64,000 bases of DNA, from IMG/VR virus record IMGVR_UViG_3300031344_000001; one strand, 5' to 3'. The stretch's first letter is position 1. Each line of letters begins with the position of its first letter. Below, piece after piece: positions 1 to 64,000 of the stretch. Position numbers and translations under genes: made by a program. The notes below the pieces were generated by a model that saw only the letters and a program-made list of their open reading frames with translations, made no database searches and was not told the DNA's origin. The DNA comes from a virus (lineage: Duplodnaviria; Heunggongvirae; Uroviricota; Caudoviricetes).

Positions 1-669
1 GGGCGCGGGCTCGGATGGCTCGGAGGGCTCGGCGGGCTCGGCGGGCTCGGCGGGCTCGGGCTCGGCGGGCTCGGCGGGCTCGGGCTCGGCGAGCTCGGCG
101 GGCTCGGGCTCGGGCTCGGCGGGCTCGGCGGGCTCGGGCTCGGCGGGCTCGGCGGGCTCGGGCTCGGCGAGCTCGGCGGGCTCGGGCTCGGGCTCGGCGG
201 GCTCGTCCGACTCGAGATCGACGTAGGTCACCGGGTTGTGCGGCCCCGGGCGATGCAGCCGATCCTCGCTCTGGAGCCGCTCCAAGAGCGCGTTTGACGT
301 GGCGGGCTCGTCAGATTCGGCGGGCTCGGCGGGCTCGGGATCGGCCTCGTAGGCGCAGCACTCGGTGCAGTGCGTGCAGGCCGTCGATCCGGGGAACTCG
401 GGGTCGCGACCGTGATCCTCGGGGGCGCCACCGCAGACGCACGGATCCGTGCCGCTCACGACGGCCCCAGCCGACAGAGGCGCAGTCGTGGGCTTCGCCA
501 GCGGCTTCTTCGCGGGCACCTTCTTCTTCGCGGGCACTTTCTTCTTCGCGGGCACCTTCTTCTTCGCGGGCACCTTCTTCGCGATCTTGAGCACCTTCGC
601 CTTCACGTGGGCCTTCGTCTTGGTCTTCACGTGTGCCTTCGTCTTGGTCTTGGTCTTGGTCTTTGCCAT
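1..669 (-). CDS. Histone H1-like basic protein with Cys cluster and acidic EPA-repeat tail (3' end runs off window)
   Basis: Absent from the ORF track because there is no stop in the window. ATG at 669 reads MAKTKTKTKTKAHVKTKTKAHVKAKVLKIAKK(VPAKKK)3VPAKKP..., then CVC...CTHCTECC, then EPAEPEPEPAE repeats to base 1. Confidence 0.8.
   Translation of the reverse strand, partial: MAKTKTKTKTKAHVKTKTKAHVKAKVLKIAKKVPAKKKVPAKKKVPAKKKVPAKKPLAKPTTAPLSAGAVVSGTDPCVCGGAPEDHGRDPEFPGSTACTHCTECCAYEADPEPAEPAESDEPATSNALLERLQSEDRLHRPGPHNPVTYVDLESDEPAEPEPEPAELAEPEPAEPAEPEPAEPAEPEPEPAELAEPEPAEPAEPEPAEPAEPAEPSEPSEPAP
5..204. repeat. GGGCTC/GGCGGGCTC tandem repeat (encodes EP/EPA on the minus strand)
   Basis: Directly visible 6/9-bp tandem units. 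Confidence 0.9.
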
Positions 670-16051: not shown

Positions 16052-17065
16052 GTGAACGGACTCGCCGACAAGTTTCCCGAGTCGCTGCCCGCGTTTCAGC
16101 GGATGTTTCCCGACGACGGCGCATGCGCCGCGTACCTCGAAGCCCTGCGCTGGCGCGATGGCTTCCAGTGCCCCAAGTGCGCGTCCACCGCCGCGCCGAT
16201 GCACCTCGGCCGACCCGGCGTCCTTCGCTGCAAGGCGTGCAAGCGCGACATCGCGCTGACCGCCGGCACCGTCATGGAGCGCACGCACATGCCCTTGTCG
16301 ACGTGGTTCTGGGCCGCGTTCCTCGTCGCCTCGCTCACGCCCGGCATGAGCGCCGTGCAGTTGCAGCGCCAGCTCGGGATCAAGAGCTACGAGACCGCGT
16401 TTCAGATTCTCCACAAGCTGCGCGCATCTATGGCCGTCACGAGTGGTCGCATCGGCATGCGCACGCACGTCGAGATCGACGAGACGTGGGTCGGTGGCCG
16501 GACGCGCGGCAAGGGCCGAGGCGTGCACGATCAGACCTGCGTGATCGGCGCCGTCGAGGTCAAGCAGCGCGTCACGAAGCCCGAGCGCGAGGACGGCAAG
16601 GGAAAGCCCCGGCGCGGCGGGCGCTATGCGGGCCGGCTGCGGCTCGCGGTCGTGCCGGACCGTACCGCCAAGACGCTCACCGGCTTCGTGCAAGAGGCTG
16701 TGGAGCCCGCTACGGAGATGGTGGTCACCGATGCCTGGCAGGGCTACGCGTCGCTTGCCAAGCTCGGGTACCAACACCTCGCGGTCGCCGAGCGCGGCGA
16801 GCCGGGCGTGGCCGAGGACTACCTGCCGATCGTGCACCTCATCTTCAGCAACTTGAAGGCGTGGCTCAACGGCGTGCATCACGGCGTGAGCCCCAAGCAC
16901 TTGCAGGCGTACTTGAACGAGTTTGTTTTCCGTTTCAACAGGCGGTTTTATCCCTTCAACGCGTTCCGCTCGCTGCTCGGCTTGAGCGCCGATTCGGAGT
17001 CGCCCACATACGCGGAGTTGTACGATGGAATTTGGCAGCATCCGACCACTACAGGCGTGTCTTAG
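16052..17065 (+). CDS. IS1595-family (ISXO2-like) DDE transposase
   Basis: Zn ribbon CPKC..CKAC; VEIDETWVGG; VVTDAWQGY; GVHHGVSPKHLQAYLNEFVFRFNRR. Confidence 0.95.
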   Translation: MNGLADKFPESLPAFQRMFPDDGACAAYLEALRWRDGFQCPKCASTAAPMHLGRPGVLRCKACKRDIALTAGTVMERTHMPLSTWFWAAFLVASLTPGMSAVQLQRQLGIKSYETAFQILHKLRASMAVTSGRIGMRTHVEIDETWVGGRTRGKGRGVHDQTCVIGAVEVKQRVTKPEREDGKGKPRRGGRYAGRLRLAVVPDRTAKTLTGFVQEAVEPATEMVVTDAWQGYASLAKLGYQHLAVAERGEPGVAEDYLPIVHLIFSNLKAWLNGVHHGVSPKHLQAYLNEFVFRFNRRFYPFNAFRSLLGLSADSESPTYAELYDGIWQHPTTTGVS

Positions 17066-23405: not shown

Positions 23406-24755
23406 TCACGGCTTGTACTCGTCGGCGCCGAAGTCGCACGCAGAACCCTGAGGCCGCACGTCACCGTCCAGGTCGACAGGATCGACGACGGCGCATTGGC
23501 CCGCGGCGTCGACGACCGTATGGGGAGTGGCCGAGGTCAGGTGAAAATCGAGTGGCGAGGTGACGGGGCTCTTGAACCCGAGGTCAGCCGCGTCGGTGAC
23601 CACGACCAGGGTGTCCCCGAACTGGCAGCCCCCCGCGTCTTGCGTCGCGGCACTGGTCGTCGTCCCCTCCGCATTCTTGTAGATGAGGTTGCCGGAAGCG
23701 GACACGTTCGCGCCCGTGCACGTCACCCCGCCACGATAGATGGCCCCGGCACAGGCGTTGAAAGCGACCGTGTTGAACAGGAAGGTGCTCCCAGGGGTGT
23801 TGGCGATGAGGGTCGCGCCGCCGACCTGGGAGGCGTTGTCACCGCCCGCGGTGCCGTTGTAGACGATGAAGTTGTTGGTGATGTTGAACGCCGTGCCCGT
23901 GCCTGACACGGAGATGCCGCCGCCGGGGTTGCTGGAAATGGTCGATTGCTCGACGATCAGGCTGCCAGCCGCCGTGGAGATGCCGCCACCGGGGTTGTTG
24001 GAGACGGTGGCCCTGATGAGGGAGACCGCAGGGGCGCCGCTCGCGATCGGCACGACGACGCCGTAGCCGCTGGCGTTGTTCGGCCCATCGCTGATCGACA
24101 AGTCGTAGATGGTGAGTGACGTGCCGTCGCCGCTGACCGTGAGAATCGCGCCAGCGCCCGTGCTGCGCGTCAGCTTGGCGGCGCGGTCAGCCAGGAACGT
24201 GACGGTCTGCCCGCTGACCGTCACGGACTGGTCGGTCGTGCCGGTGAACTTCACGAACGGCCGACGGGTCGCGAGCGCCTTGGTCACCGAGGTACACGGC
24301 AGCGCCTTCACGCACGAGCTGTTGTCCGTGCCCGCGGGGTCGACGTACGCGACGCTTGCGTCGTCCCCGCACGAACCGTCAGGCAAGCAGGCCCCCGAGG
24401 CGCAGTCCGCGTGCGCGGAGCAAGCGTGACAAGCGTCGTCACTCCCGCACAGCGGCGTCGTCCCGATGCACGCAGCAGCCTCCGCCTTCGTGCAGACCAC
24501 GCAGGTCGCATCGCCCAGGTCACAGACCGCGGTCGTGCCCGTGCACGCCTGGTCGTTCGCGCAACCCGTCGGCGCCGCGTCGATCGTCAACGACGACGGC
24601 GCGTCGGCGTACGTGACGGCGTTGAAGCCGCAAGCGCCGATTCCCTGCGCGAGGCCGAGGAGGAGGAGGACGCCGAGGTTCGTCGCGACTCCACGAAGGG
24701 CGTCGAAGTCGATGACGATCTTTTGAGATCCTGGATCGCGTTCGTGCTTGGTCAT
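23406..24755 (-). CDS. Secreted/membrane Cys-repeat, beta-helix, choice-of-anchor-Q protein (myxobacterial type)
   Basis: Hydrophobic N-terminal segment ending in GAC; CxxxxxCxxxxxVC repeats; NNPGGGIS repeats; C-terminal DLDGDVRPQGSACDFGADEY. Confidence 0.75.
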   Translation of the reverse strand: MTKHERDPGSQKIVIDFDALRGVATNLGVLLLLGLAQGIGACGFNAVTYADAPSSLTIDAAPTGCANDQACTGTTAVCDLGDATCVVCTKAEAAACIGTTPLCGSDDACHACSAHADCASGACLPDGSCGDDASVAYVDPAGTDNSSCVKALPCTSVTKALATRRPFVKFTGTTDQSVTVSGQTVTFLADRAAKLTRSTGAGAILTVSGDGTSLTIYDLSISDGPNNASGYGVVVPIASGAPAVSLIRATVSNNPGGGISTAAGSLIVEQSTISSNPGGGISVSGTGTAFNITNNFIVYNGTAGGDNASQVGGATLIANTPGSTFLFNTVAFNACAGAIYRGGVTCTGANVSASGNLIYKNAEGTTTSAATQDAGGCQFGDTLVVVTDAADLGFKSPVTSPLDFHLTSATPHTVVDAAGQCAVVDPVDLDGDVRPQGSACDFGADEYKP

Positions 24756-28482: not shown

Positions 28483-30516
28483 TCACGACAGGCCCCCTGC
28501 GCTCACGGCGATCTTCCCCATGCCGTCGTACTCGATCTCAGCGGCGCGCCGGAGGTGGGCCGCGTTAATCGGCACCCGCTCGTCGGCGGCGAGGAAAGCG
28601 GCCCGGAGCGTCGCGTTCCGAATGTAGCCGCCCGACATCTCGAACTGCTGGGCGAGGCCCTTGAGCCCGAGCTGGGCCTCGACGGGTGCCGCGGGCGGCA
28701 GCATCGCACGCCACAAGTCCAGACGTTCGCCTGCATCCGGGACCGTGAAGCGGACGTGGAGTGACAGGCGCCGCTGAAACGCTTGGTCGATCGAGCTCTC
28801 GTGGTTGGTCGTCAAGAGGCAGATGCCCGTGAAGCTCTCCAACCGCTGCAAGAGGTAGTTGGTCTCCTGGTTCGCGTAGCGGTCGTTGCTCGACTTGACG
28901 TCGGTGCGCTTGCCGAACAGCGAGTCCGCCTCGTCGAACAAGAGGATCGCGTGCCCCGCCTCGGCGGCGTCGAACAGTGCTCCGAGCTGCTTCTCCGTCT
29001 CGCCGATCCACTTCGACACGACCTTCGCGAGGTCGACCTGGTACAGCTCGAGGCCGAGGTCGCGCGCGATCAGCGCGGCGATCATCGTCTTGCCCGTCCC
29101 GGGCGGCCCGGAGAACAGCGCGGAGACGCCGAGCCCCTTGCCGACCTTTCTCGCGAAGCCCCAGTCCTCGTAAACGCGGCTGCGCTCGCGTACGCGAGCG
29201 ATCAGCTCCGTCACCGGCGCGAGCTGGTCGGAAGGCAGCACCAGGTCGTCCCACGTCTGGCTCGTGGTCGACCGTCGCGCCAGACCCCCGAGCTTGTCGT
29301 CGAGGACGGAGCGCACGCCGGCCTGGATGTCCGCCGGCGTGACGCGCGGGCCAATCGCGCGAGAGCGTGCGGCCCGCGCCGCGGCGTGGATCAGGGCCGG
29401 CGCGAGCGGGTACTGGCCCGCGAGGTGGGCCGCGTCTTCCGGGGTCCCGTCGCCGAGTGCCGCGAGCCAGAGCGCACCGCGCTGCGCCGAGGTCGGTCCC
29501 AGCAGCTCGACCACGACGACCGGGCGATCCCAGCGGAGGGCCGGGGGTTGCGCCCCGGCGGTGACCAGCACCGGCCCGGGGACCGCAGCTGCCAGCTCGG
29601 CACCGAGCGTCGGTACTCGGTCGGGCACGTTCTCCGTCGGGGACAGCGCCTCGATGTTCACGACCAGCGGGACGCGGTCCAGCAGCCTGCACTCACGGGC
29701 GACGCGGCGCAGCTCCTCGACAAGGCGCGCGGGGTCGCGGCTCAGCGCGCGCGCGTTGACCTGGAGCACCTCAAGCCCGGCCGCGGTCGCGGCGGAGAGC
29801 AGGGACGTTCGGCGCCCGACCCCGGGTGGACCGCTCGCGACGACGACCTGTCCCGTCGGCGCCGCCACCGCCGCGACGAGCAGCGCCGCCGCGGTCTCGT
29901 CGATCGCGAGCTGGCTCAACGCGGGCGCGGCGCCCGGGATCGAGACGCACGCGAGCGCGGGGTCGGGAGAGGCGTCGCCGTGGAGCAGCGCGAGCACGCG
30001 GCGCGCCAGCGTGAACGTGTGCTTGGTCTCGTGCACGTCCGCGCCGCCCCCATCGCTGCGCTCGATCAGCGCGAGCCGACGCAGCGGCGCGTCGGGGCCG
30101 AGCTCGGCGAACGCGCGGCGCGACGGGCGGGCGCCGTACACGACCAGCCGGAGGACTTCGAGCGTGGGGTCGGGCGCGCTACCGCCAGCCAGCGCGATCG
30201 CCAGGGTGCGCGCGTCACCGTCGACCGCGATGGCCGTAAGCAGCCAGACCACCTGCTCCTCGGTCTCGGACAACCCGAGGCGCGATCGCAGCCTCGTCGC
30301 CCCGAGATCGGGGTGAATCGCGCCGCGCGCCGTGATGCGCGCCTGGGTCTGGGCCATCGTCCCGAGGAGGTGCGCCGCGTCGGGTCCGGGCTCCTCGCCG
30401 CGGTGCGCGCGCACGCGCAACTCGAGGTTGGCCGTGAACCACGCGACGTGGTCGGCCAGGTGCTCGAGGTCGAGGCTGCCGTCGTCGAGCGCGGTACCGG
30501 GGGAGGGTTGAAACAT
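28483..30516 (-). CDS. AAA+ ATPase, eCIS-associated (Afp15/Pvc15-like) type
   Basis: Degenerate first P-loop [10 protein letters not shown]; WDDLVLP; [10 protein letters not shown]; [11 protein letters not shown]; LLFDEAD; [14 protein letters not shown]; probable ATG at 30516. Confidence 0.85.
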
Positions 30517-31592: not shown

Positions 31593-32699
31593 CTACTGAG
31601 CAGGCCCCGAAGCCGCAGCCGTCGCGGGCGCTCCAGCGGAACCTGTCTTCGCGTCGAGGTCGTGCTCATCGAACGCGGGGCCGACGTAGGGAGCGCGCGG
31701 CGGGATCACCGGCGGGGGCGGCCCCGCAATGCTGTGCGCGCAGCGAAAGGCTGCCGGCCCACTGTCGAGCACTTCCTCTGCTGCCTCACCGATCGTCGCG
31801 CCAGCGCGGCCCTTCACGACGTGGAGCACCTCAGCCTCAGGCGGGTCTTCAGGAGCCTTCCCAATCGGGTCGACCACGTTGGTGGCGCGCCAGTCGACGA
31901 TCGTCCAGCGCCGGTCGATGGTCGGGATCCCGTCCACCGTCACGATGCTGATGTTGGGTTCCGCGCGTGGGTCCCTGAGGTCGGCATGCCCGTTGACCTC
32001 CTTGCTGTGCACGTACCAACGCCCGTCTTCCCAAGGGTCCGCGACCCACTCGCCAACAGTCCCGTACGTGTCGTCCACGCCGTACGGACTGCGGCTGTCA
32101 GGGTAGTGGCCGACGGGCGGCGGGTTGAGGGTGCAGTGCAGGAGGACGTGCTCTTGCGCGGGGACCTCGAAGTCCGAGAGGCTCACGTTGGGCCCCCGCT
32201 GACACGTCGGGACGCTGTTCCCCCACGGGTAGATTCGATCGTCCGCGCTTCCTCGCGCAGCCTTCTCCCACTGCGCCTCCGTCGGGAGTCCCTCGCCGTG
32301 CCAGGCGCAGTACGCGCGCGCCTGCGCCCACGTCACGACCGCCGCGACGGCGTCCTTCTCGGCGACGAAGATGTCCGGGCCTCCCCAAGAGATCACCGGG
32401 GGCTCTCCGACACCCGGCTGGCAGGCCCCCGCACGAACGCACTGCTCGAACTCGCCCCGCGGTACTTGACGACTGTCGACCTCGAAGGACGAGAGCCAGA
32501 CGCGCCGAGGGGGGCGATCGTCCACGCACTGCGCCAGCGTGGCGAACTGAACACCCCGGTACATGCCCGTGCAGCCCGCGGTGTACCAGCCAGCGGCGAC
32601 GACGCGCGGGTGGTTCGGCGCGGCCTTCAACGGGGCCCGTGGTGTGCCCTGACCACACGCCGTACCTGCGACGACCACTAGCAGGAGGAGCATCCTCAC
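31593..32699 (-). CDS. Formylglycine-generating-enzyme (FGE-sulfatase/SUMF1) domain lipoprotein
   Basis: Lipobox-like LLLLVVVAGTA-C; WAQARAYCAW..LPTEAQWEKAARG..YPWGN..SPYGVDD..GTVGEWVAD..FRCA. Confidence 0.85.
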   Translation of the reverse strand: MRMLLLLVVVAGTACGQGTPRAPLKAAPNHPRVVAAGWYTAGCTGMYRGVQFATLAQCVDDRPPRRVWLSSFEVDSRQVPRGEFEQCVRAGACQPGVGEPPVISWGGPDIFVAEKDAVAAVVTWAQARAYCAWHGEGLPTEAQWEKAARGSADDRIYPWGNSVPTCQRGPNVSLSDFEVPAQEHVLLHCTLNPPPVGHYPDSRSPYGVDDTYGTVGEWVADPWEDGRWYVHSKEVNGHADLRDPRAEPNISIVTVDGIPTIDRRWTIVDWRATNVVDPIGKAPEDPPEAEVLHVVKGRAGATIGEAAEEVLDSGPAAFRCAHSIAGPPPPVIPPRAPYVGPAFDEHDLDAKTGSAGAPATAAASGPAQ

Positions 32700-35775: not shown

Positions 35776-35816
35776 GGCGTACCTTTCTTGCGGTGAATGA
35801 TCGAAGCGCCGCGGCG

Positions 35817-36017
35817 CTACTCGTCCTTGAGGAGTGAGAGTTGGTCACCAGAGACCGTCGGTGGCACCGGCCGCGGTGGCGGGACAGCCGCGAGATCCAA
35901 CCGCGTACGGATCCACTCCGATAGCGTCTCGTCGTCCCTCTTCGCAGCCGCGCGCCACATCTTCATCTGACGAGGGCGCGCTCGGATGTTGACGTTAACC
36001 GAATGAGCTGAGGCCAC
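35817..36017 (-). CDS. Ribbon-helix-helix-like DNA-binding protein (paralog 3), first gene of the leftward block
   Basis: SVNVNIRARPRQMKMWRAAAKRDDETLSEWIRTRLD; GTG at 36017. Confidence 0.65.
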   Translation of the reverse strand: MASAHSVNVNIRARPRQMKMWRAAAKRDDETLSEWIRTRLDLAAVPPPRPVPPTVSGDQLSLLKDE

Positions 36018-36060
36018 AGAGATCTGTTTACAGTGGCGCTTTACGATTGTCAATACAGAT
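36016..36060 (-). promoter_or_regulatory. Divergence point; leftward sigma70-type promoter (leaderless)
   Basis: TTGACA (36053-36048)-17 bp-TAAACA (36030-36025)-7 bp-GTG; IRs ACAGA-GA-TCTGT and ATCTGT...ACAGAT; AT-rich. Confidence 0.7.
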
Positions 36061-36284
36061 GCACTCGTGCTACCTGTCTTCTCCCATGAGCCGCTGGTTA
36101 TCTGGAGACGTCGCCACCATGACGCTCGGCGCGATCGAAGCCGAGATCTCATCCATCGAGAGGACGCCGATGCGCGACCGATCCGTCGCCGACGTCGAGC
36201 GACTCGCCGACCTACGCTCGGCCCAGCGCCGGATCAAGGGCGTCAAGGGCGGCTCGCGCAACTGCTTCTGGAGCTGACCCCGAC

Positions 36285-40169: not shown

Positions 40170-40502
40170 ATGACTCCCACGACCACGACCACGTCTCCGA
40201 CCATCCGCCCCCTCCACGACCGCATCCTCGTCAAGCGCCTCGAAGCCGAGGAAAAGACGCCCGGCGGCCTCTTCATTCCCGAAGCCGCCAAGGAGAAGCC
40301 CGTCGCGGGAATCGTGGTCGCGATCGGCGACGGCGCTCGCGACAAGGACGGCCAGCGGATCCCGCTCGACGTCAAGACCGGCGACCGCGTGCTGTTCGCC
40401 AAGTACAGCGGCACCGAGGTGCAGACCCTCGGCGAGGGTCACGTGATCTTGCGTGAGGACGACGTCCTCGCCGTGATCGGTGACGCGGGGCAGGAGTCCT
40501 AA
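40170..40502 (+). CDS. groES: Co-chaperonin GroES
   Basis: IRPLHDRILVKRLEAEEKTPGGLFIPEAAKEKP..GDG..LDVKTGDRVLFAKYSGTEV..ILREDDVLAVI. Confidence 0.95.
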   Translation: MTPTTTTTSPTIRPLHDRILVKRLEAEEKTPGGLFIPEAAKEKPVAGIVVAIGDGARDKDGQRIPLDVKTGDRVLFAKYSGTEVQTLGEGHVILREDDVLAVIGDAGQES

Positions 40503-41713: not shown

Positions 41714-42310
41714 ATGCTGGCCTTCCTCGACCTCGAGACAACGGGCCTCGACAGCGAGAGCGACGACATCCTGGAGGTCGCCTGCGTCGTCACCGAGGAC
41801 GATCTCCAGGAAGTGGCCCGCTACCACTCCGTCCTCGTGGCGCACCGTCCCTTCCATCGCCTGCCGGAGGTCGTGCGCGACATGCACGCCAAGAGCGGCC
41901 TGTGGGACGAGGCGACCGGCGGGTCGAAGAAGGCCGCCAAGACCCTCGGTGCCGTCGACCAAGACCTGTCGACCTTCCTGCGCGCGCACGCAGTCAGGAT
42001 CCAGAAGCGCGACGACGGCACCCCTGTGATCGAGCGCGCGCAACTCGCCGGGCTCGGCGTCTACTTCGACCGCATGTTCATGAAGCGCTGCCTGCCGCGC
42101 GCCGAGGCCGAGCTGCACTACCGCCAGCTCGACCTCACGGGCGTCAACGAGCTCTTCGCGCGCTTCCGCCCGAGCGTCTACGAGGGTCGTCCCAAGCACC
42201 CCGTCGTGCACCGCGCGATGCCAGACGTCCTGGAGGCGATCGACGTCGCACGCTACTACGGCGCGTGGATCGGGAGCCCGGAGCACGGCGCCAACACGGG
42301 AACGCCGTAG
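41714..42310 (+). CDS. orn: Oligoribonuclease (DEDDh 3'-5' exonuclease)
   Basis: FLDLETTGLD..DDILEVACVVT..MHAKSGL..FDRMFMK..LHYRQLDL..HRAMPDV. Confidence 0.85.
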   Translation: MLAFLDLETTGLDSESDDILEVACVVTEDDLQEVARYHSVLVAHRPFHRLPEVVRDMHAKSGLWDEATGGSKKAAKTLGAVDQDLSTFLRAHAVRIQKRDDGTPVIERAQLAGLGVYFDRMFMKRCLPRAEAELHYRQLDLTGVNELFARFRPSVYEGRPKHPVVHRAMPDVLEAIDVARYYGAWIGSPEHGANTGTP

Positions 42311-58055: not shown

Positions 58056-58262
58056 ATGCCGCTGACGACCTACCAAAAGTCGAGACTCCTGTGGATCGGA
58101 GGCGGCCTCCTGGGCGGCGTCATCGGGTACGCGGTCACCAAACGTCCCAAGGAGGCCCTCCTGTCAGGGGCCATGGGATCGATCCTCGTGGGCGCGGTAG
58201 GGGACAAGGTGCTCGAGCAGCATCAACGCACCGGCGTTTGGTCGCTACTGCCCGTCCGCTGA
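58056..58262 (+). CDS. Small two-TM membrane protein
   Basis: Two Gly-rich hydrophobic segments, 68 aa. Confidence 0.55.
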   Translation: MPLTTYQKSRLLWIGGGLLGGVIGYAVTKRPKEALLSGAMGSILVGAVGDKVLEQHQRTGVWSLLPVR

Positions 58263-59887: not shown

Positions 59888-60406
59888 CGCGCGCCCTCAA
59901 CGATACGTTCCCCAGCCACTCACACGCGCTTGTCGGAGGGCGGCAATTTCCTTTTCCACAGCACAAAGCCTGGAAAATTGGTAAGTGCTGATGAAGAAGA
60001 GCGTGGCTATCAAGAAGAGCGGAAGGGCTTGCATGGCCTTTCGAGTCTACCTTCTGATGCTTCTGATGAGCAAAGCCGCTGACGTGCTGATTATCGACGG
60101 CCTCCGCGGATGTCGCTTCGGCGAGCGGCGAGCGGCGAGCACTTGCCACGCGGAACTTCATTTTTGTTCGAGCCGCCGGTAGGCTTGGCCCATGGGCTTC
60201 AAGAGCAGCGGGACCTACGTCGTCAAGTCGTTCCGCGATCGTGGGTTGAACGTGGAGATGCCGTCGTTGGCCTTGGCCAAGAGTTCCGCTCGCGATCTTG
60301 CGAGCATGCCATTGCGCTGGAAAAAGGAAGAGGTCTTAGACGCCAGTGGCGATCCACTTCGCACGACGTACTACAACGATGGCGACTTCTACATCGAGTT
60401 GCGCAC

Positions 60407-60862
60407 GTGAGCGCGAGCGTGACGGCCAAGCTGTCGCGCGCCGACCTCGACAAGGCGATCCGCGAGGCCGAGACGGCACTCGCGCGTTTTGGGGTGCAAG
60501 ACCGCTTCACCGTGAAGATCAAGCCTGCACGTAAGGGCGAATGGATTGGCATGTATCGAAGTCGGACCCAATTTCACGGGCACCGGCTGCCGATCTTCTG
60601 GATCAGCGAAGCAGCCCCACGGATTGCGAAGGCCACAGGCTGGTCTCTCCACAGGGCGCTGGTCTCAACGCTCCTGCACGAGTACGGGCACGTGATTTAC
60701 GAGTGGGCGAAGCTCGAGTCCCCCGCCCTGATGCAAGACATCGAGAACATCACCGACGATGAAGAAGACTTCGCGGAGACGTTCGGCATTGCCGCTATGA
60801 ATGGAGCGTCATCGCCAGCGTACAGAAAGATCGCGGCGCGTTATTTCGAGGAGGCTTCGTGA
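60407..60862 (+). CDS. HExxH zinc-metallopeptidase-like protein
   Basis: STLLHEYGHVI...EEDFAETF; GTGA overlap with 60192..60410. Confidence 0.6.
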   Translation: MSASVTAKLSRADLDKAIREAETALARFGVQDRFTVKIKPARKGEWIGMYRSRTQFHGHRLPIFWISEAAPRIAKATGWSLHRALVSTLLHEYGHVIYEWAKLESPALMQDIENITDDEEDFAETFGIAAMNGASSPAYRKIAARYFEEAS

Positions 60863-60874
60863 ACACGCACACGA

Positions 60875-61738
60875 TCAGCGAAAGGTCACAAAGCGCCCGC
60901 TCGGGTGAACGTAGCCGACGAAGCGCCCCTTGCTGACGCTGTAGACCCCCGCGGGTGCCCCCATCTCCTTGGCCACGCGCTTGGCGTCGGTGAGGTCGTA
61001 CGGCCGCACCGCGCCGCCCACGCGGCGCATCGGGACCTTCACCGAGCGCTCGGCGTGGCGGTGCGTCGCCTCCGGGTAGACGACGTACTCGTAGTCACGA
61101 GTCGCGGGCGCGATCGTGCTGTGCGCGAGCCCCCCTCCAAGCCTAGCCCGATGCTGTTGGTACACCGCATTGATCTCGGATTGAGCGATTCCGGTCCTGC
61201 TTGCGTAGTAGGCACCCATTCCAGTCCAGGGCTTCATCATCACGCGCCAGATTTCTGCCAACTCGTCGGGTGTATGCGCCTTGCTGAAATGTCTGTGCGC
61301 CCACGCAGCAGGTGCCCCCGGTGGCAGACTGATCTTGGAAGTCGCGATTGTGCTGTGCCCGCCGGGACCTCCGTGCTCCCCGCCGCCCGCGAGCGCCTCG
61401 GTGATCTCGGCGTCGAGCTGCGCGGGCGTCTTCTTCACCGGCGTCTCGCTCACCTCGCGCGGAGGCTTGCGCGCGCCGGGACGCTCGTTGATCACGTAGC
61501 GCTGCCACAGGTTGTAGCCCTGCCGCCCACCGACGCGGATCTGGACGCTACCCTTGCGCGCGCTGCCCACCACCGAGCACGCCTTGTGGCTCCTGCGACA
61601 CGCTTGCGCGGCGTGCTTCACTTCCTCGGCGAGCGCCTTCGCGGCGGCCTCCTTCGAGTGGAACTCGTGCGGACGTCCCGTGACCTCGTCGACGAGGTAG
61701 CCGCGCTGCGTCGCGATGATGTAGTGCTTGCCGGCCAT
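60875..61738 (-). CDS. Modular protein with KKTPAQLD tag and two HSTI motifs
   Basis: ATG at 61738 (or 61747); KKTPAQLDAEITEAL, GGHSTI, LAHSTI. Confidence 0.75.
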   Translation of the reverse strand: MAGKHYIIATQRGYLVDEVTGRPHEFHSKEAAAKALAEEVKHAAQACRRSHKACSVVGSARKGSVQIRVGGRQGYNLWQRYVINERPGARKPPREVSETPVKKTPAQLDAEITEALAGGGEHGGPGGHSTIATSKISLPPGAPAAWAHRHFSKAHTPDELAEIWRVMMKPWTGMGAYYASRTGIAQSEINAVYQQHRARLGGGLAHSTIAPATRDYEYVVYPEATHRHAERSVKVPMRRVGGAVRPYDLTDAKRVAKEMGAPAGVYSVSKGRFVGYVHPSGRFVTFR

Positions 61739-61781
61739 GTGCGTCATCCTTGCAGGCTTTTGTCGTCGAAAGTCGAGCGCT

Positions 61782-62582
61782 TCAGCCCTGAGTGGCCGCG
61801 AGGTACCGCGCGACAATCTTCGACGCGCGATCCGGCGTCGTGCGACTGCGACTCGCACTCTTGATCGAACGCAGCCCATTGTCGTGAATGAGCACGTCAA
61901 CGAGGTCATACCCAAGCTTGTTCTTGGGGTCGGGCACCTTCACGTTGTAGTTGGTCCCGTCCGAACGCATCGAGATCGCGAGGATCTCGGGGAACTCCTC
62001 GCGGCGCTGGATCGTCTGCACGTGACGGCGTGCCTCCGCCGTCGGGTACAACCCCCCGTCACGGTTGATCGTGCTGTGAGCCTTGCGCCCGCGCTTCTTC
62101 AGCGCCGCGTCCTCCGCCGCCAGCTCCTGCGCGATCTGCTTCGCGATCCCGATCTGTTCCCGGTACTGCTTCTCGGTCAATCCAAGCTCAGCCGCCGTCT
62201 TGTTGCCGAGGTTGTGCTCGTGCCGATAGCGCAGACAGTTCGTGCACAGCGAGCCGGACAACGGACAGTGCTTGCCTGGCGCGTAGAGGATGGCGTCGAC
62301 CTCGCGACCGATCTTCGCGTGCTGACGCTTGGGCTTCTTCGCGCCACGCGACAGCCCCAGCTTCTCCACAGCCTTGTAGATCTGCTGCGCGTCCTCGGCG
62401 TGAAGTGCCGCGGAGTTCGCGTGCATCGACCTATTCGTCATGATGTCGCTGCGCTCCGCGTCACGGTGCACGTCGGCGGCATCCATGTGGTCGTCGGCCG
62501 TCCAGTCCCCGAAGTTCGGGTGCAGCTGGTAGGCCGCGTACACAGGCTTGCCGCTGCTCGTGTGTCCGATCGTCTTGGGCAT
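61782..62582 (-). CDS. Modular protein with HAKI/HSTI motifs
   Basis: ATG at 62582 just after the upstream TAG; RQHAKIGREVDAIL, KAHSTI. Confidence 0.75.
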   Translation of the reverse strand: MPKTIGHTSSGKPVYAAYQLHPNFGDWTADDHMDAADVHRDAERSDIMTNRSMHANSAALHAEDAQQIYKAVEKLGLSRGAKKPKRQHAKIGREVDAILYAPGKHCPLSGSLCTNCLRYRHEHNLGNKTAAELGLTEKQYREQIGIAKQIAQELAAEDAALKKRGRKAHSTINRDGGLYPTAEARRHVQTIQRREEFPEILAISMRSDGTNYNVKVPDPKNKLGYDLVDVLIHDNGLRSIKSASRSRTTPDRASKIVARYLAATQG

Positions 62583-62584
62583 CG

Positions 62585-63151
62585 CTAGATCCTCTCGTCG
62601 TAGAAGCCCTGGAGCTTCTCCGCGAGCGCGGCGGCGGCCAACGGGAACGGCGAATGCCCGCCCTCCGCGTCGCTGTCCACGTCGTCGGTCCACTGCCACA
62701 TCTCGGACTCACTGAACGCGACGCTCCCGTCCTCCGAGGCGTGCGCGGCGAGCATGTCCGGCCAGGCGTAGCGCCCACGCGCGAACTCGACCGCGCGCAG
62801 CTCGCTCGGCGTGAGCTGGAGCCGGTAGGCGACCCGAGACGGCGGCTGCTTCTTCCGTGCATGGCTCGAGGTGCAGGCCCCGCACGGCGACTTCTTCACC
62901 AGCGCGCCCGCGATCTCGCGGTCCAGCTGCGCGGGCGTCTTCTTGGCAGTCGCCGCCTTCGCGTGTTCCGCAGCCGCCGCCTTCGCCTTCCGCTCCGTGG
63001 GGAACGTACCGACGTGCTCGTGCTTGCCCGGGGGACGGAACGAGACCGTGTGCTGGTCCTTGCGGTGCGAGATCACGTAGTCGTGCTCGGTACCCCCGTG
63101 CGAGATCGGAGCCTGGATGCCGGGCATCCCCGGCTCCTTTTTCCACTTCAC
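62585..63151 (-). CDS. Modular protein with KKTPAQLD tag and HARK motif
   Basis: GTGA overlap at 63151-63148; KKTPAQLDREIAGAL, SSHARKK. Confidence 0.75.
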   Translation of the reverse strand: MKWKKEPGMPGIQAPISHGGTEHDYVISHRKDQHTVSFRPPGKHEHVGTFPTERKAKAAAAEHAKAATAKKTPAQLDREIAGALVKKSPCGACTSSHARKKQPPSRVAYRLQLTPSELRAVEFARGRYAWPDMLAAHASEDGSVAFSESEMWQWTDDVDSDAEGGHSPFPLAAAALAEKLQGFYDERI

Positions 63152-63999
63152 TCGAAGATCTCCGCGTAGCGCGTGATGCCGGGCGACGCCTCCAGCCAGT
63201 CGAGCAGGCGCCCCACCGCGCCGCGGTAGCCGGTCCACTCGACCACGGCGTAGCGCGCGTCCTTCGGCCGCCGGTATGACCGCCCGCGCGCCAGCTCCGC
63301 CTCGGCGAGCGGGACGCGGTCGTCGCGCCACGTGGCGTCGGCCGGGAGGTCGCGCCCGCGATCGAATTCGCGCGGGTCGATCTCGACGGCGAACAAAGCG
63401 CTCGCAGCCTTCGTGGCATGTGCCGTCCTACGCCCCGGACGCGATCCGCGGAGAGCCTCGGTGATCTCGCGATCGAGTTGGGCTGCCCGCGCCCTCAGCT
63501 TCGGATCGCGCTTGATCCGCTCGACGGCCTTGATCGCGGCGGCGATGTCCTCCACCACCTCGTCATCCACGGACTTCCTCTTCCTCGCGTGATGCACCGA
63601 ACTGCCAGACGGCCCGAACCACCGCCCGTCGCTGGTGACCGCGTGCCCCGCCCGATGAGCGCGCTCCAGCGCGTAGCCCACGCCCAGCACATCGGCACCT
63701 CCGATGGCGCGAGACATGCCGTGAGCGTCGATCTCTGTGCCCGGGCGCATGTTGCTGAGATGGGCCCTCACGCGCGCGTCGAGGTCCATCGTCGCGTGCG
63801 CGCGGGGCGGCACCTTGTAGCCCTTCGCCCGCGCCTGCGAGAGCCCGATCGCGATCGCCTGCTCGCGCGAGGTGACCTTGGCGCCGCTGCCGCTCTTCAG
63901 CTTGCCGCGCTTGAACTCGTGCATCGTCCGCCCGACCTTCTCGGACGCCTTCTCACTGTACTTCGTCGCATGCGTGGGCGCGTCGGCGTCGGCCCTCTT
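63148..63999 (-). CDS. Modular protein containing a DUF6496-like domain (5' end beyond window)
   Basis: Frame is open to the window edge: ..PTHATKYSEKASEKVGRTMHEFKRGKLKSGSGAKVTSREQAIAIGLSQARAKGYKVP; also HATM, HARK, QLDREITEAL, HATK. Confidence 0.8.
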   Translation of the reverse strand, partial: KRADADAPTHATKYSEKASEKVGRTMHEFKRGKLKSGSGAKVTSREQAIAIGLSQARAKGYKVPPRAHATMDLDARVRAHLSNMRPGTEIDAHGMSRAIGGADVLGVGYALERAHRAGHAVTSDGRWFGPSGSSVHHARKRKSVDDEVVEDIAAAIKAVERIKRDPKLRARAAQLDREITEALRGSRPGRRTAHATKAASALFAVEIDPREFDRGRDLPADATWRDDRVPLAEAELARGRSYRRPKDARYAVVEWTGYRGAVGRLLDWLEASPGITRYAEIFE

Positions 64000-64000
64000 C

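Follow-up and report, generated by a model that had tools for sequence, protein, structure and literature searches.

Four adjacent genes on the minus strand of a 64,000-nucleotide (nt) stretch of viral DNA (IMG/VR record IMGVR_UViG_3300031344_000001; this whole stretch is referred to as the window) encode proteins built of small modules, and a short histidine motif marks the boundaries between these modules. The genes, designated A to D, lie at positions 60875–64000 and together encode 1,027 amino acids (aa). We defined the strict His motif as H-[AS]-[TR]-[KIM] and counted HAKI as a variant. An earlier note on this DNA had reported eight strict copies plus HAKI in the four genes, and each of them was recovered at its position. 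Three of the proteins also share a second repeated element, a helical tag. We lean, with limited confidence, towards the reading that these are tagged virion cargo polyproteins, whose small modules would be released when a viral protease cleaves at the His motif.

The His motif is enriched and located at module joints

The enrichment claimed in the earlier note was borne out by shuffling, as the four proteins contain 8 strict motifs per 1,027 aa against a shuffle mean of 0.18 and a maximum of 3 in 2,000 shuffles (Poisson p ~2e-11). The remaining called genes of the window hold 4 strict motifs per 18,567 aa (shuffle 1.0). A similar excess was determined for 110 metagenome loci that had been selected by the tag alone, with the motif not used; their tagged proteins contain 58 strict motifs vs. 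1.8 in shuffled sequences. It could be argued that the motif reflects chance, an assembly error or the composition of genes that are basic and GC-rich, given that the tetrapeptide is short and that a six-frame translation of the window yields 12 more strict matches. However, the p value and the 30-fold excess in the motif-blind loci refute this explanation, and the assembly was confirmed, so that we assign it practically no weight. A public contig, possibly from the source sample (rhizosphere soil), covers the motif stretch with zero differences, and near-identical pieces are also present in bog and soil runs from two further studies.

Gene A (63148–64000, as all features of this paragraph on the minus strand) extends 180 bases past the window end, beyond the extent assumed in the earlier note. 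Its full product of 343 aa, read from an overlapping contig, contains five modules, four His motifs (HATK at 63961–63972, HATM at 63787–63798, HARK at 63580–63591 and HATK at 63409–63420) and one tag (63451–63486). A DUF6496 module (63802–63963; Pfam E value 7.6e-19, model positions 1–57/58) has a motif at each end, as had been proposed. The Pfam match covers residues 13–66 of the window frame. It starts with the Lys of the first motif and stops two residues short of the second, HATM, which is retained in 4/4 joints between DUF6496 and the next module. In gene B (62585–63151; 188 aa with a GTG start or 180 aa with the ATG at 63127) the order is module, tag (62900–62944), motif (HARK, 62852–62863) and module, the last of which is preceded by a different first module in 8 relatives. 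Gene C (61782–62582, 266 aa) has three modules and no clear tag; its two motifs are the variant HAKI (62310–62321), with HSTR at the same joint in relatives, and HSTI (62067–62078), ahead of module C3. Finally, gene D (60875–61747, 287–290 aa) consists of module D1, tag (61391–61435), motif, module D2, motif and module D3. Both of its motifs are HSTI, one at the left edge of the inserted D2 (61346–61357) and one at the right edge, where D3 starts (61112–61123). The inter-motif segments in the window are 57–97 aa long.

Of the homology breakpoints, 42% have a motif no more than 5 aa away, vs. 11% at random. Using 20 module seeds, we identified 115 adjacent module pairs of 30 types; 114 of them carry the motif in the linker, while shuffled linkers give 4.3, in agreement with the boundary position proposed earlier. 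In total, 141 sites were counted in 4,066 linker residues and none in 22,192 module-core residues, a zero that is partly due to construction, as the seeds were cut by the analyst at observed boundaries. Since, moreover, related proteins in the pair counts are not independent, it is fairer to count the 30 pair types. A module-anchored alignment, in which the motif was unused, recovered the His motif at a constant distance from the downstream module. In this consensus, His is followed by Ala/Ser at +1 (90%), Thr at +2 (81%) and K/I/R/V/M at +3 (92%), with no Glu.

AlphaFold2 predicted the product of gene D as three domains and a lone tag helix (residues 105–117), with low-confidence linkers between them (predicted template modelling score 0.35). 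Both motifs are placed in linkers that separate domains and have a predicted local distance difference test score (pLDDT) below 50; module D2, folded without homologues, is itself of low confidence. Foldseek against the PDB and an atlas search gave no clear match for gene D, and feature searches of the atlas returned unnamed viral clusters only. The consensus also recalls sites of N-to-O acyl shift, namely His-Leu before Thr/Ser in GAIN domains and His-Phe before Ser in Nup98. With His invariant and Thr two residues on in most anchored sites, the proteins might cleave themselves between x and Thr of His-x-Thr. Such reactions, however, depend on a folded domain to put strain on the bond, whereas the sites here lie in the low-pLDDT linkers, and Thr is replaced by Arg, Lys or Ala at some joints, in the window at three of nine. 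We regard self-cleavage as very improbable.

As the earlier note had anticipated, the segments also occur as stand-alone genes or with other partners. The stand-alone genes begin at His+0 to His+3; two D3 genes start exactly at +3, while N-terminal tags have their mode at +2. One such gene is located in the window itself (60192–60410, plus strand), with its Met at +1, and its module follows a His motif in relative P0026 (76% identity over 70 aa, E value 1e-37). The motif is thus in register with stand-alone starts, and a cut there would restore the native N-terminus. The joint between D1 and D3 always has a site, although some proteins have it ahead of the tag and others behind it. Tandem spare sites occur, as they do in the propeptides of phiKZ (PMC9026906).

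Modules are shuffled among relatives

Searches with genes D and C returned 139 proteins, most of which match 25–50% of the query at 60–85% identity, and each of which is a distinct string of modules. As judged from sequence, the four window genes are mosaics drawn from a shared pool of 55–130 aa modules. Gene D represents a common two-module form with the extra module D2, the motif being repeated on either side; in another relative, the position of D2 is taken by a different inserted module, again with the motif on both sides. Contigs of 181–502 kb contain syntenic clusters of the same genes, in which modules have been gained, lost or moved. The proteins are basic (median isoelectric point 9.6 vs. 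6.9). Pfam matches among 122 cargo proteins were limited to DUF6496 (5) and one each of YgjP-like, DUF5661 and GNAT; the remaining ~90% had no match, which leaves distant kinship possible. The YgjP-like zinc metallopeptidase module forms the end of a cargo protein, behind a His motif, at L058:9092-9775 and L073:3323-4006.

A sister element (L135:168-10419) has at least four of the same modules, carried singly behind another basic leader that is present in 26 copies in 10 kb. On the small genes this leader ends in Arg-Arg-Tyr-Gly-[Arg/His]-Ala, and two leaders run on as HATR and HAKR.

Codon pattern at the motif

The 90 motif sites compared correspond to 48 different 12-mers, with both Ser codon families in use and the third position of the His codon at background. 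Orthologous joints use CAC-AGC, CAT-TCC and CAC-GCG. Such codon variation points to selection on the peptide. At the same time, 19 of the 90 sites share the modal 12-mer and 42 differ from it by at most one change, and Ala is encoded by GCG in 36 of 40 cases vs. 48–59% in context (p 2e-5), so that codon bias does not fully account for the uniformity of the motif DNA. The excess of one codon string indicates shared ancestry, and the copies are probably crossover points.

These data bear on the possibility that the motif arises mainly because a short DNA site, at which modules cross over to be fused or swapped, is translated, with the proteins staying whole. Both the codon excess and the insertion of D2 and of another module with the motif duplicated at both sides agree with this explanation. 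On the other hand, the changes are mostly synonymous or are Ala/Ser swaps that require two or three base changes, and the motif persists in old fusions in which the upstream linker DNA has decayed to ~30% identity. The codon pattern weakens the crossover explanation, which we hold to be rather improbable; recombination probably contributes, without explaining the retention of the motif.

A portable helical tag

The second repeated element, shared by proteins A, B and D, is a 15-residue helical tag with the core QLDREI, preceded by a basic stretch. The earlier note had missed it when it described the four proteins as otherwise unrelated, a description that does not fit these three. In the fetched loci the tag was found on 110 proteins, in 59 N-terminal, 84 internal and 16 C-terminal contexts. 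The motif stands ahead of the tag in 56 of the 84 internal cases (mostly 7–8 residues away) vs. 1 of the 59 N-terminal ones. In a distant relative (L138:3279-6017), tags are carried by single-module proteins inside a block of jelly-roll-like genes, with no His motif at them. Because of these proteins the tag looks older, while the motif appears to belong to the fusions. The tag is a better candidate for a packaging signal than the motif. The tag pattern also gave 10 matches in bacterial genomes, mostly DUF3618-like (L011–L018), of which L011 was confirmed by Pfam.

Alternatively, the His motif could be an uncut docking, hinge or modification site, bound to a scaffold or a metal or modified at Thr, that tethers each module in the core. 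Its position in disordered linkers, often just before an internal tag, would suit such a role, as would its occurrence in a structural-block membrane protein and near N-termini, where a cut would release just a few residues. But N-terminal modules and nearly all N-terminal tags are without the motif, the single-module proteins of L138 have tags without it, and docking creates no need for one site per joint or for register with the ancestral start Met. We consider such a docking role unlikely, though not to be dismissed.

Jelly-roll-like genes and a candidate protease in related loci

A capsid-like gene is present in L037, L042, L121, L124 and L138, in three copies in L037 and L121, and modules of window gene A are found beside capsid-like genes in L121 and L073. 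The triplicated gene is predicted to encode a single, jelly-roll-like beta-sandwich (pLDDT 83). In structure comparison (best Z 7.2, root-mean-square deviation 3.6–4.7, 98–117 aligned residues), viral jelly-rolls (orf virus scaffold, SPV1 and HCIV-1) were tied with cellular GOLD domains.

Within the block of jelly-roll-like genes in L037, L042, L124 and L138, a transglutaminase-like gene is followed directly by motif/tag genes, although in L138 by a degenerate tag only. Alignment of 65 homologues showed that Cys97 is invariant and that His148 and Asp171 are at least 90% conserved; PF01841 was matched by 19 of the 65. This is the sole protease candidate of the morphogenesis block in the relatives, whose loci cover a small part of the genome. 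In L042 (2912-4423) an intein-like insert with a LAGLIDADG domain splits the transglutaminase-like gene at the catalytic Cys, a sign of an essential gene.

A family of the structural block, encoded upstream of the capsid-like genes (L121:6724-8543, L078:6637-7694, L047:3-188), has Arg-Arg-His-HATM ~16 residues from the N-terminus. This is possibly a propeptide cut by the same enzyme. The earlier note had suggested looking for the motif in capsid propeptides; the capsid-like proteins do not contain it, while this structural-block protein keeps it near its N-terminus. A weak second protease candidate, proposed from its sequence, is the zincin-like product of a window gene convergent on gene D (60407–60862, plus strand), in which an HExxH motif can be read. 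It gave no family match and no homologue in the fetched loci, and we ranked it below the transglutaminase-like gene because no homologue stands beside the related clusters.

Proposed processing of the cargo proteins

In the mechanism that we favour, the carrier would be a giant, probably tailless, bacterial virus whose cargo polyproteins are written in a two-part code. The portable amphipathic helix of the tag would direct a protein to the core of the assembling particle, while His-[Ala/Ser]-[Thr>Arg/Lys]-[Lys/Ile/Arg/Val/Met] in a basic disordered linker would be cut by a virus-encoded protease, probably between His and Ala/Ser or between Thr and the following residue. The best candidate for this enzyme, according to the synteny in relatives, is the putative Cys-His-Asp protease of the transglutaminase-like type in the morphogenesis block. 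Modules freed in this way would carry the same N-terminus as their stand-alone versions, as the position of the motif indicates, and their role would probably be to condense DNA or to act on the host at an early stage. The observed mosaicism may arise by recombination in the shared motif and tag DNA, with selection retaining one site per joint. The earlier proposal of a function at the protein level is favoured, while its frame of T4 gp21 and phiKZ gp175 serves as no more than an analogy and the element is probably not T4-like, since the motif has no Glu and the relatives show jelly-roll-like genes with a transglutaminase-like candidate protease rather than an HK97 cluster.

Several observations weigh against this mechanism. 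No site lies between an N-terminal tag and the first module in 16 of 16 cases, and a site is found at most 45 aa behind the tag in 8 of 60; gene C has motifs without a clear tag. The capsid-like, jelly-roll-like proteins are also without the His motif, yet the proteases of T4 and phiKZ cut the shell as well as the cargo. The candidate protease, found in relatives only, matches LapG-type structures weakly (E value 0.03–0.06). To these should be added the analyst-cut seeds, the kinship of the proteins counted and the uniform motif DNA described above.

More broadly, and tentatively, we suggest an undescribed clade of tailless bacterial viruses of 0.4–0.5 Mb, which might use the helix for loading and His-Ala/Ser-Thr for release by the transglutaminase-like enzyme, and so deliver a recombining library of hundreds of small effectors, with sister clades using the same modules and other code words. 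If true, the proposal would add a protease specificity and a packaging signal that are both new, and the processing of cargo polyproteins would reach beyond tailed phages and eukaryotic jelly-roll viruses into an undescribed group of giant soil viruses. The motif would then parse hundreds of unannotated proteins, DUF6496 included, into natural modules, which would be candidates for factors of anti-defence or host takeover. A test of the main claim would not require a culture of the virus.

Other genes of the window

The window contains ~145 short genes, mostly of unknown function, and no head or tail genes were found among those scanned. The capsid-like gene, the packaging ATPase and the protease candidate are known from relatives alone. 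An IS1595-family transposase (16052–17065, plus strand) is oriented opposite to the local genes. Host-like genes encode a Cys-rich beta-helix protein (23406–24755), a winged-helix AAA ATPase (28483–30516), an FGE-sulfatase domain (31593–32693), GroES (40170–40502) and an exonuclease (41714–42310), and these could serve as a clue to the host. The protein encoded at 1–669 (minus strand) has a repetitive, Lys/Thr/Ala-rich N-terminus that resembles a histone H1-like tail. At 35800–36200 the coding strand changes from minus to plus, together with a change in AT skew.

A TAnnnT box was noted 6–7 bases upstream of the start codons at 58056, 58284, 59192 and 60192. In the related loci it precedes 66 of 609 genes, with a peak at 6–7 bases before the start, and this spacing suggests leaderless mRNAs. 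A promoter class shared by the motif genes was not supported, as the box was found before 15% of the motif genes vs. 9% of the others (p 0.06).

Searches of IMG/VR returned stand-alone DUF6496 genes and chance matches but nothing related to gene D, to the tag or to the jelly-roll-like gene, and GenBank phages gave nothing beyond weak DUF6496 matches. A paper search retrieved no description of the His motif, the helical tag, DUF6496 or the whole system.

Comparison with known systems

DUF3618 (PF12277), a bacterial N-terminal helix, looks like the tag, but it comes without a His motif or module shuffling. The candidate protease shares with LapG (PMC3032545) a conserved Cys, His and Asp and weak PF01841/LapG-type matches. 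LapG is a periplasmic adhesin protease that cuts Ala-Ala, between two small residues (PMC3032545), whereas the viral transglutaminase-like protein is tied to the His motif by gene order alone.

The polyvalent proteins of phages and conjugative elements (Iyer et al., 2017; PMC5512222) are likewise combinations of domains predicted to be packaged and processed. Their defining feature, two or more unrelated domains in variable combinations, is also seen here, with 30 pair types among 20 seeded modules, and one cargo relative with a YgjP-like zincin and one with a GNAT domain provide a further link. In PMC5512222 the word "linker" is absent and no junction motif is described. Unlike polyvalent proteins, the proteins studied here are 100–400 aa long, and ~90% are without a Pfam match. 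Polyvalent proteins are built from a described set of domains (MPTase, ART, primase, LPD and others), to which those of the 122 cargo proteins that lack a match may still be distantly related.

In T4 (internal proteins IPI-III and Alt, the capsid targeting sequence and gp21), phiKZ (gp175) and SPN3US (gp245), as here, unrelated small basic proteins have a portable peptide of short length in common, and likely maturation cuts are marked by a short motif that also occurs in spare copies (PMC9026906). However, T4-type enzymes cut after Glu (L/I-x-E or S/A/G-x-E), and the anchored consensus contains no Glu. Removal of the targeting peptide by a site directly behind it, as in T4, would find such a site in 0 of 16 N-terminal cases and, within 45 aa, in 8 of 60. 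Unlike in T4, the position of the tag varies (N-terminal, internal or C-terminal), the proteins consist of several modules in shuffled order, and the related loci contain jelly-roll-like genes, not an HK97 head cluster.

Core polyproteins are cut by Cys proteases in several viruses, poxvirus I7 and adenain being examples besides the enzyme of African swine fever virus (ASFV). In ASFV, pp220 and pp62 are cut by pS273R at Gly-Gly-X (PMC10308890). ASFV is a jelly-roll virus, as the present one may be, and combines polyproteins with a repeated short boundary site and with a Cys protease, for which there is a candidate here. The site itself differs, being Gly-Gly-X or Ala-Gly-X in the group of ASFV, poxviruses and adenoviruses and His-[Ala/Ser]-Thr-x in the present proteins. 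Other differences are the many small genes, the strain-variable modules, the probable bacterial host and a candidate enzyme that, in the part of the genome covered, is transglutaminase-like rather than of the SUMO-protease/adenain type (clan CE). The two systems nevertheless appear alike in that, according to the structure model, the repeated site stands at the boundaries of products predicted to fold separately.

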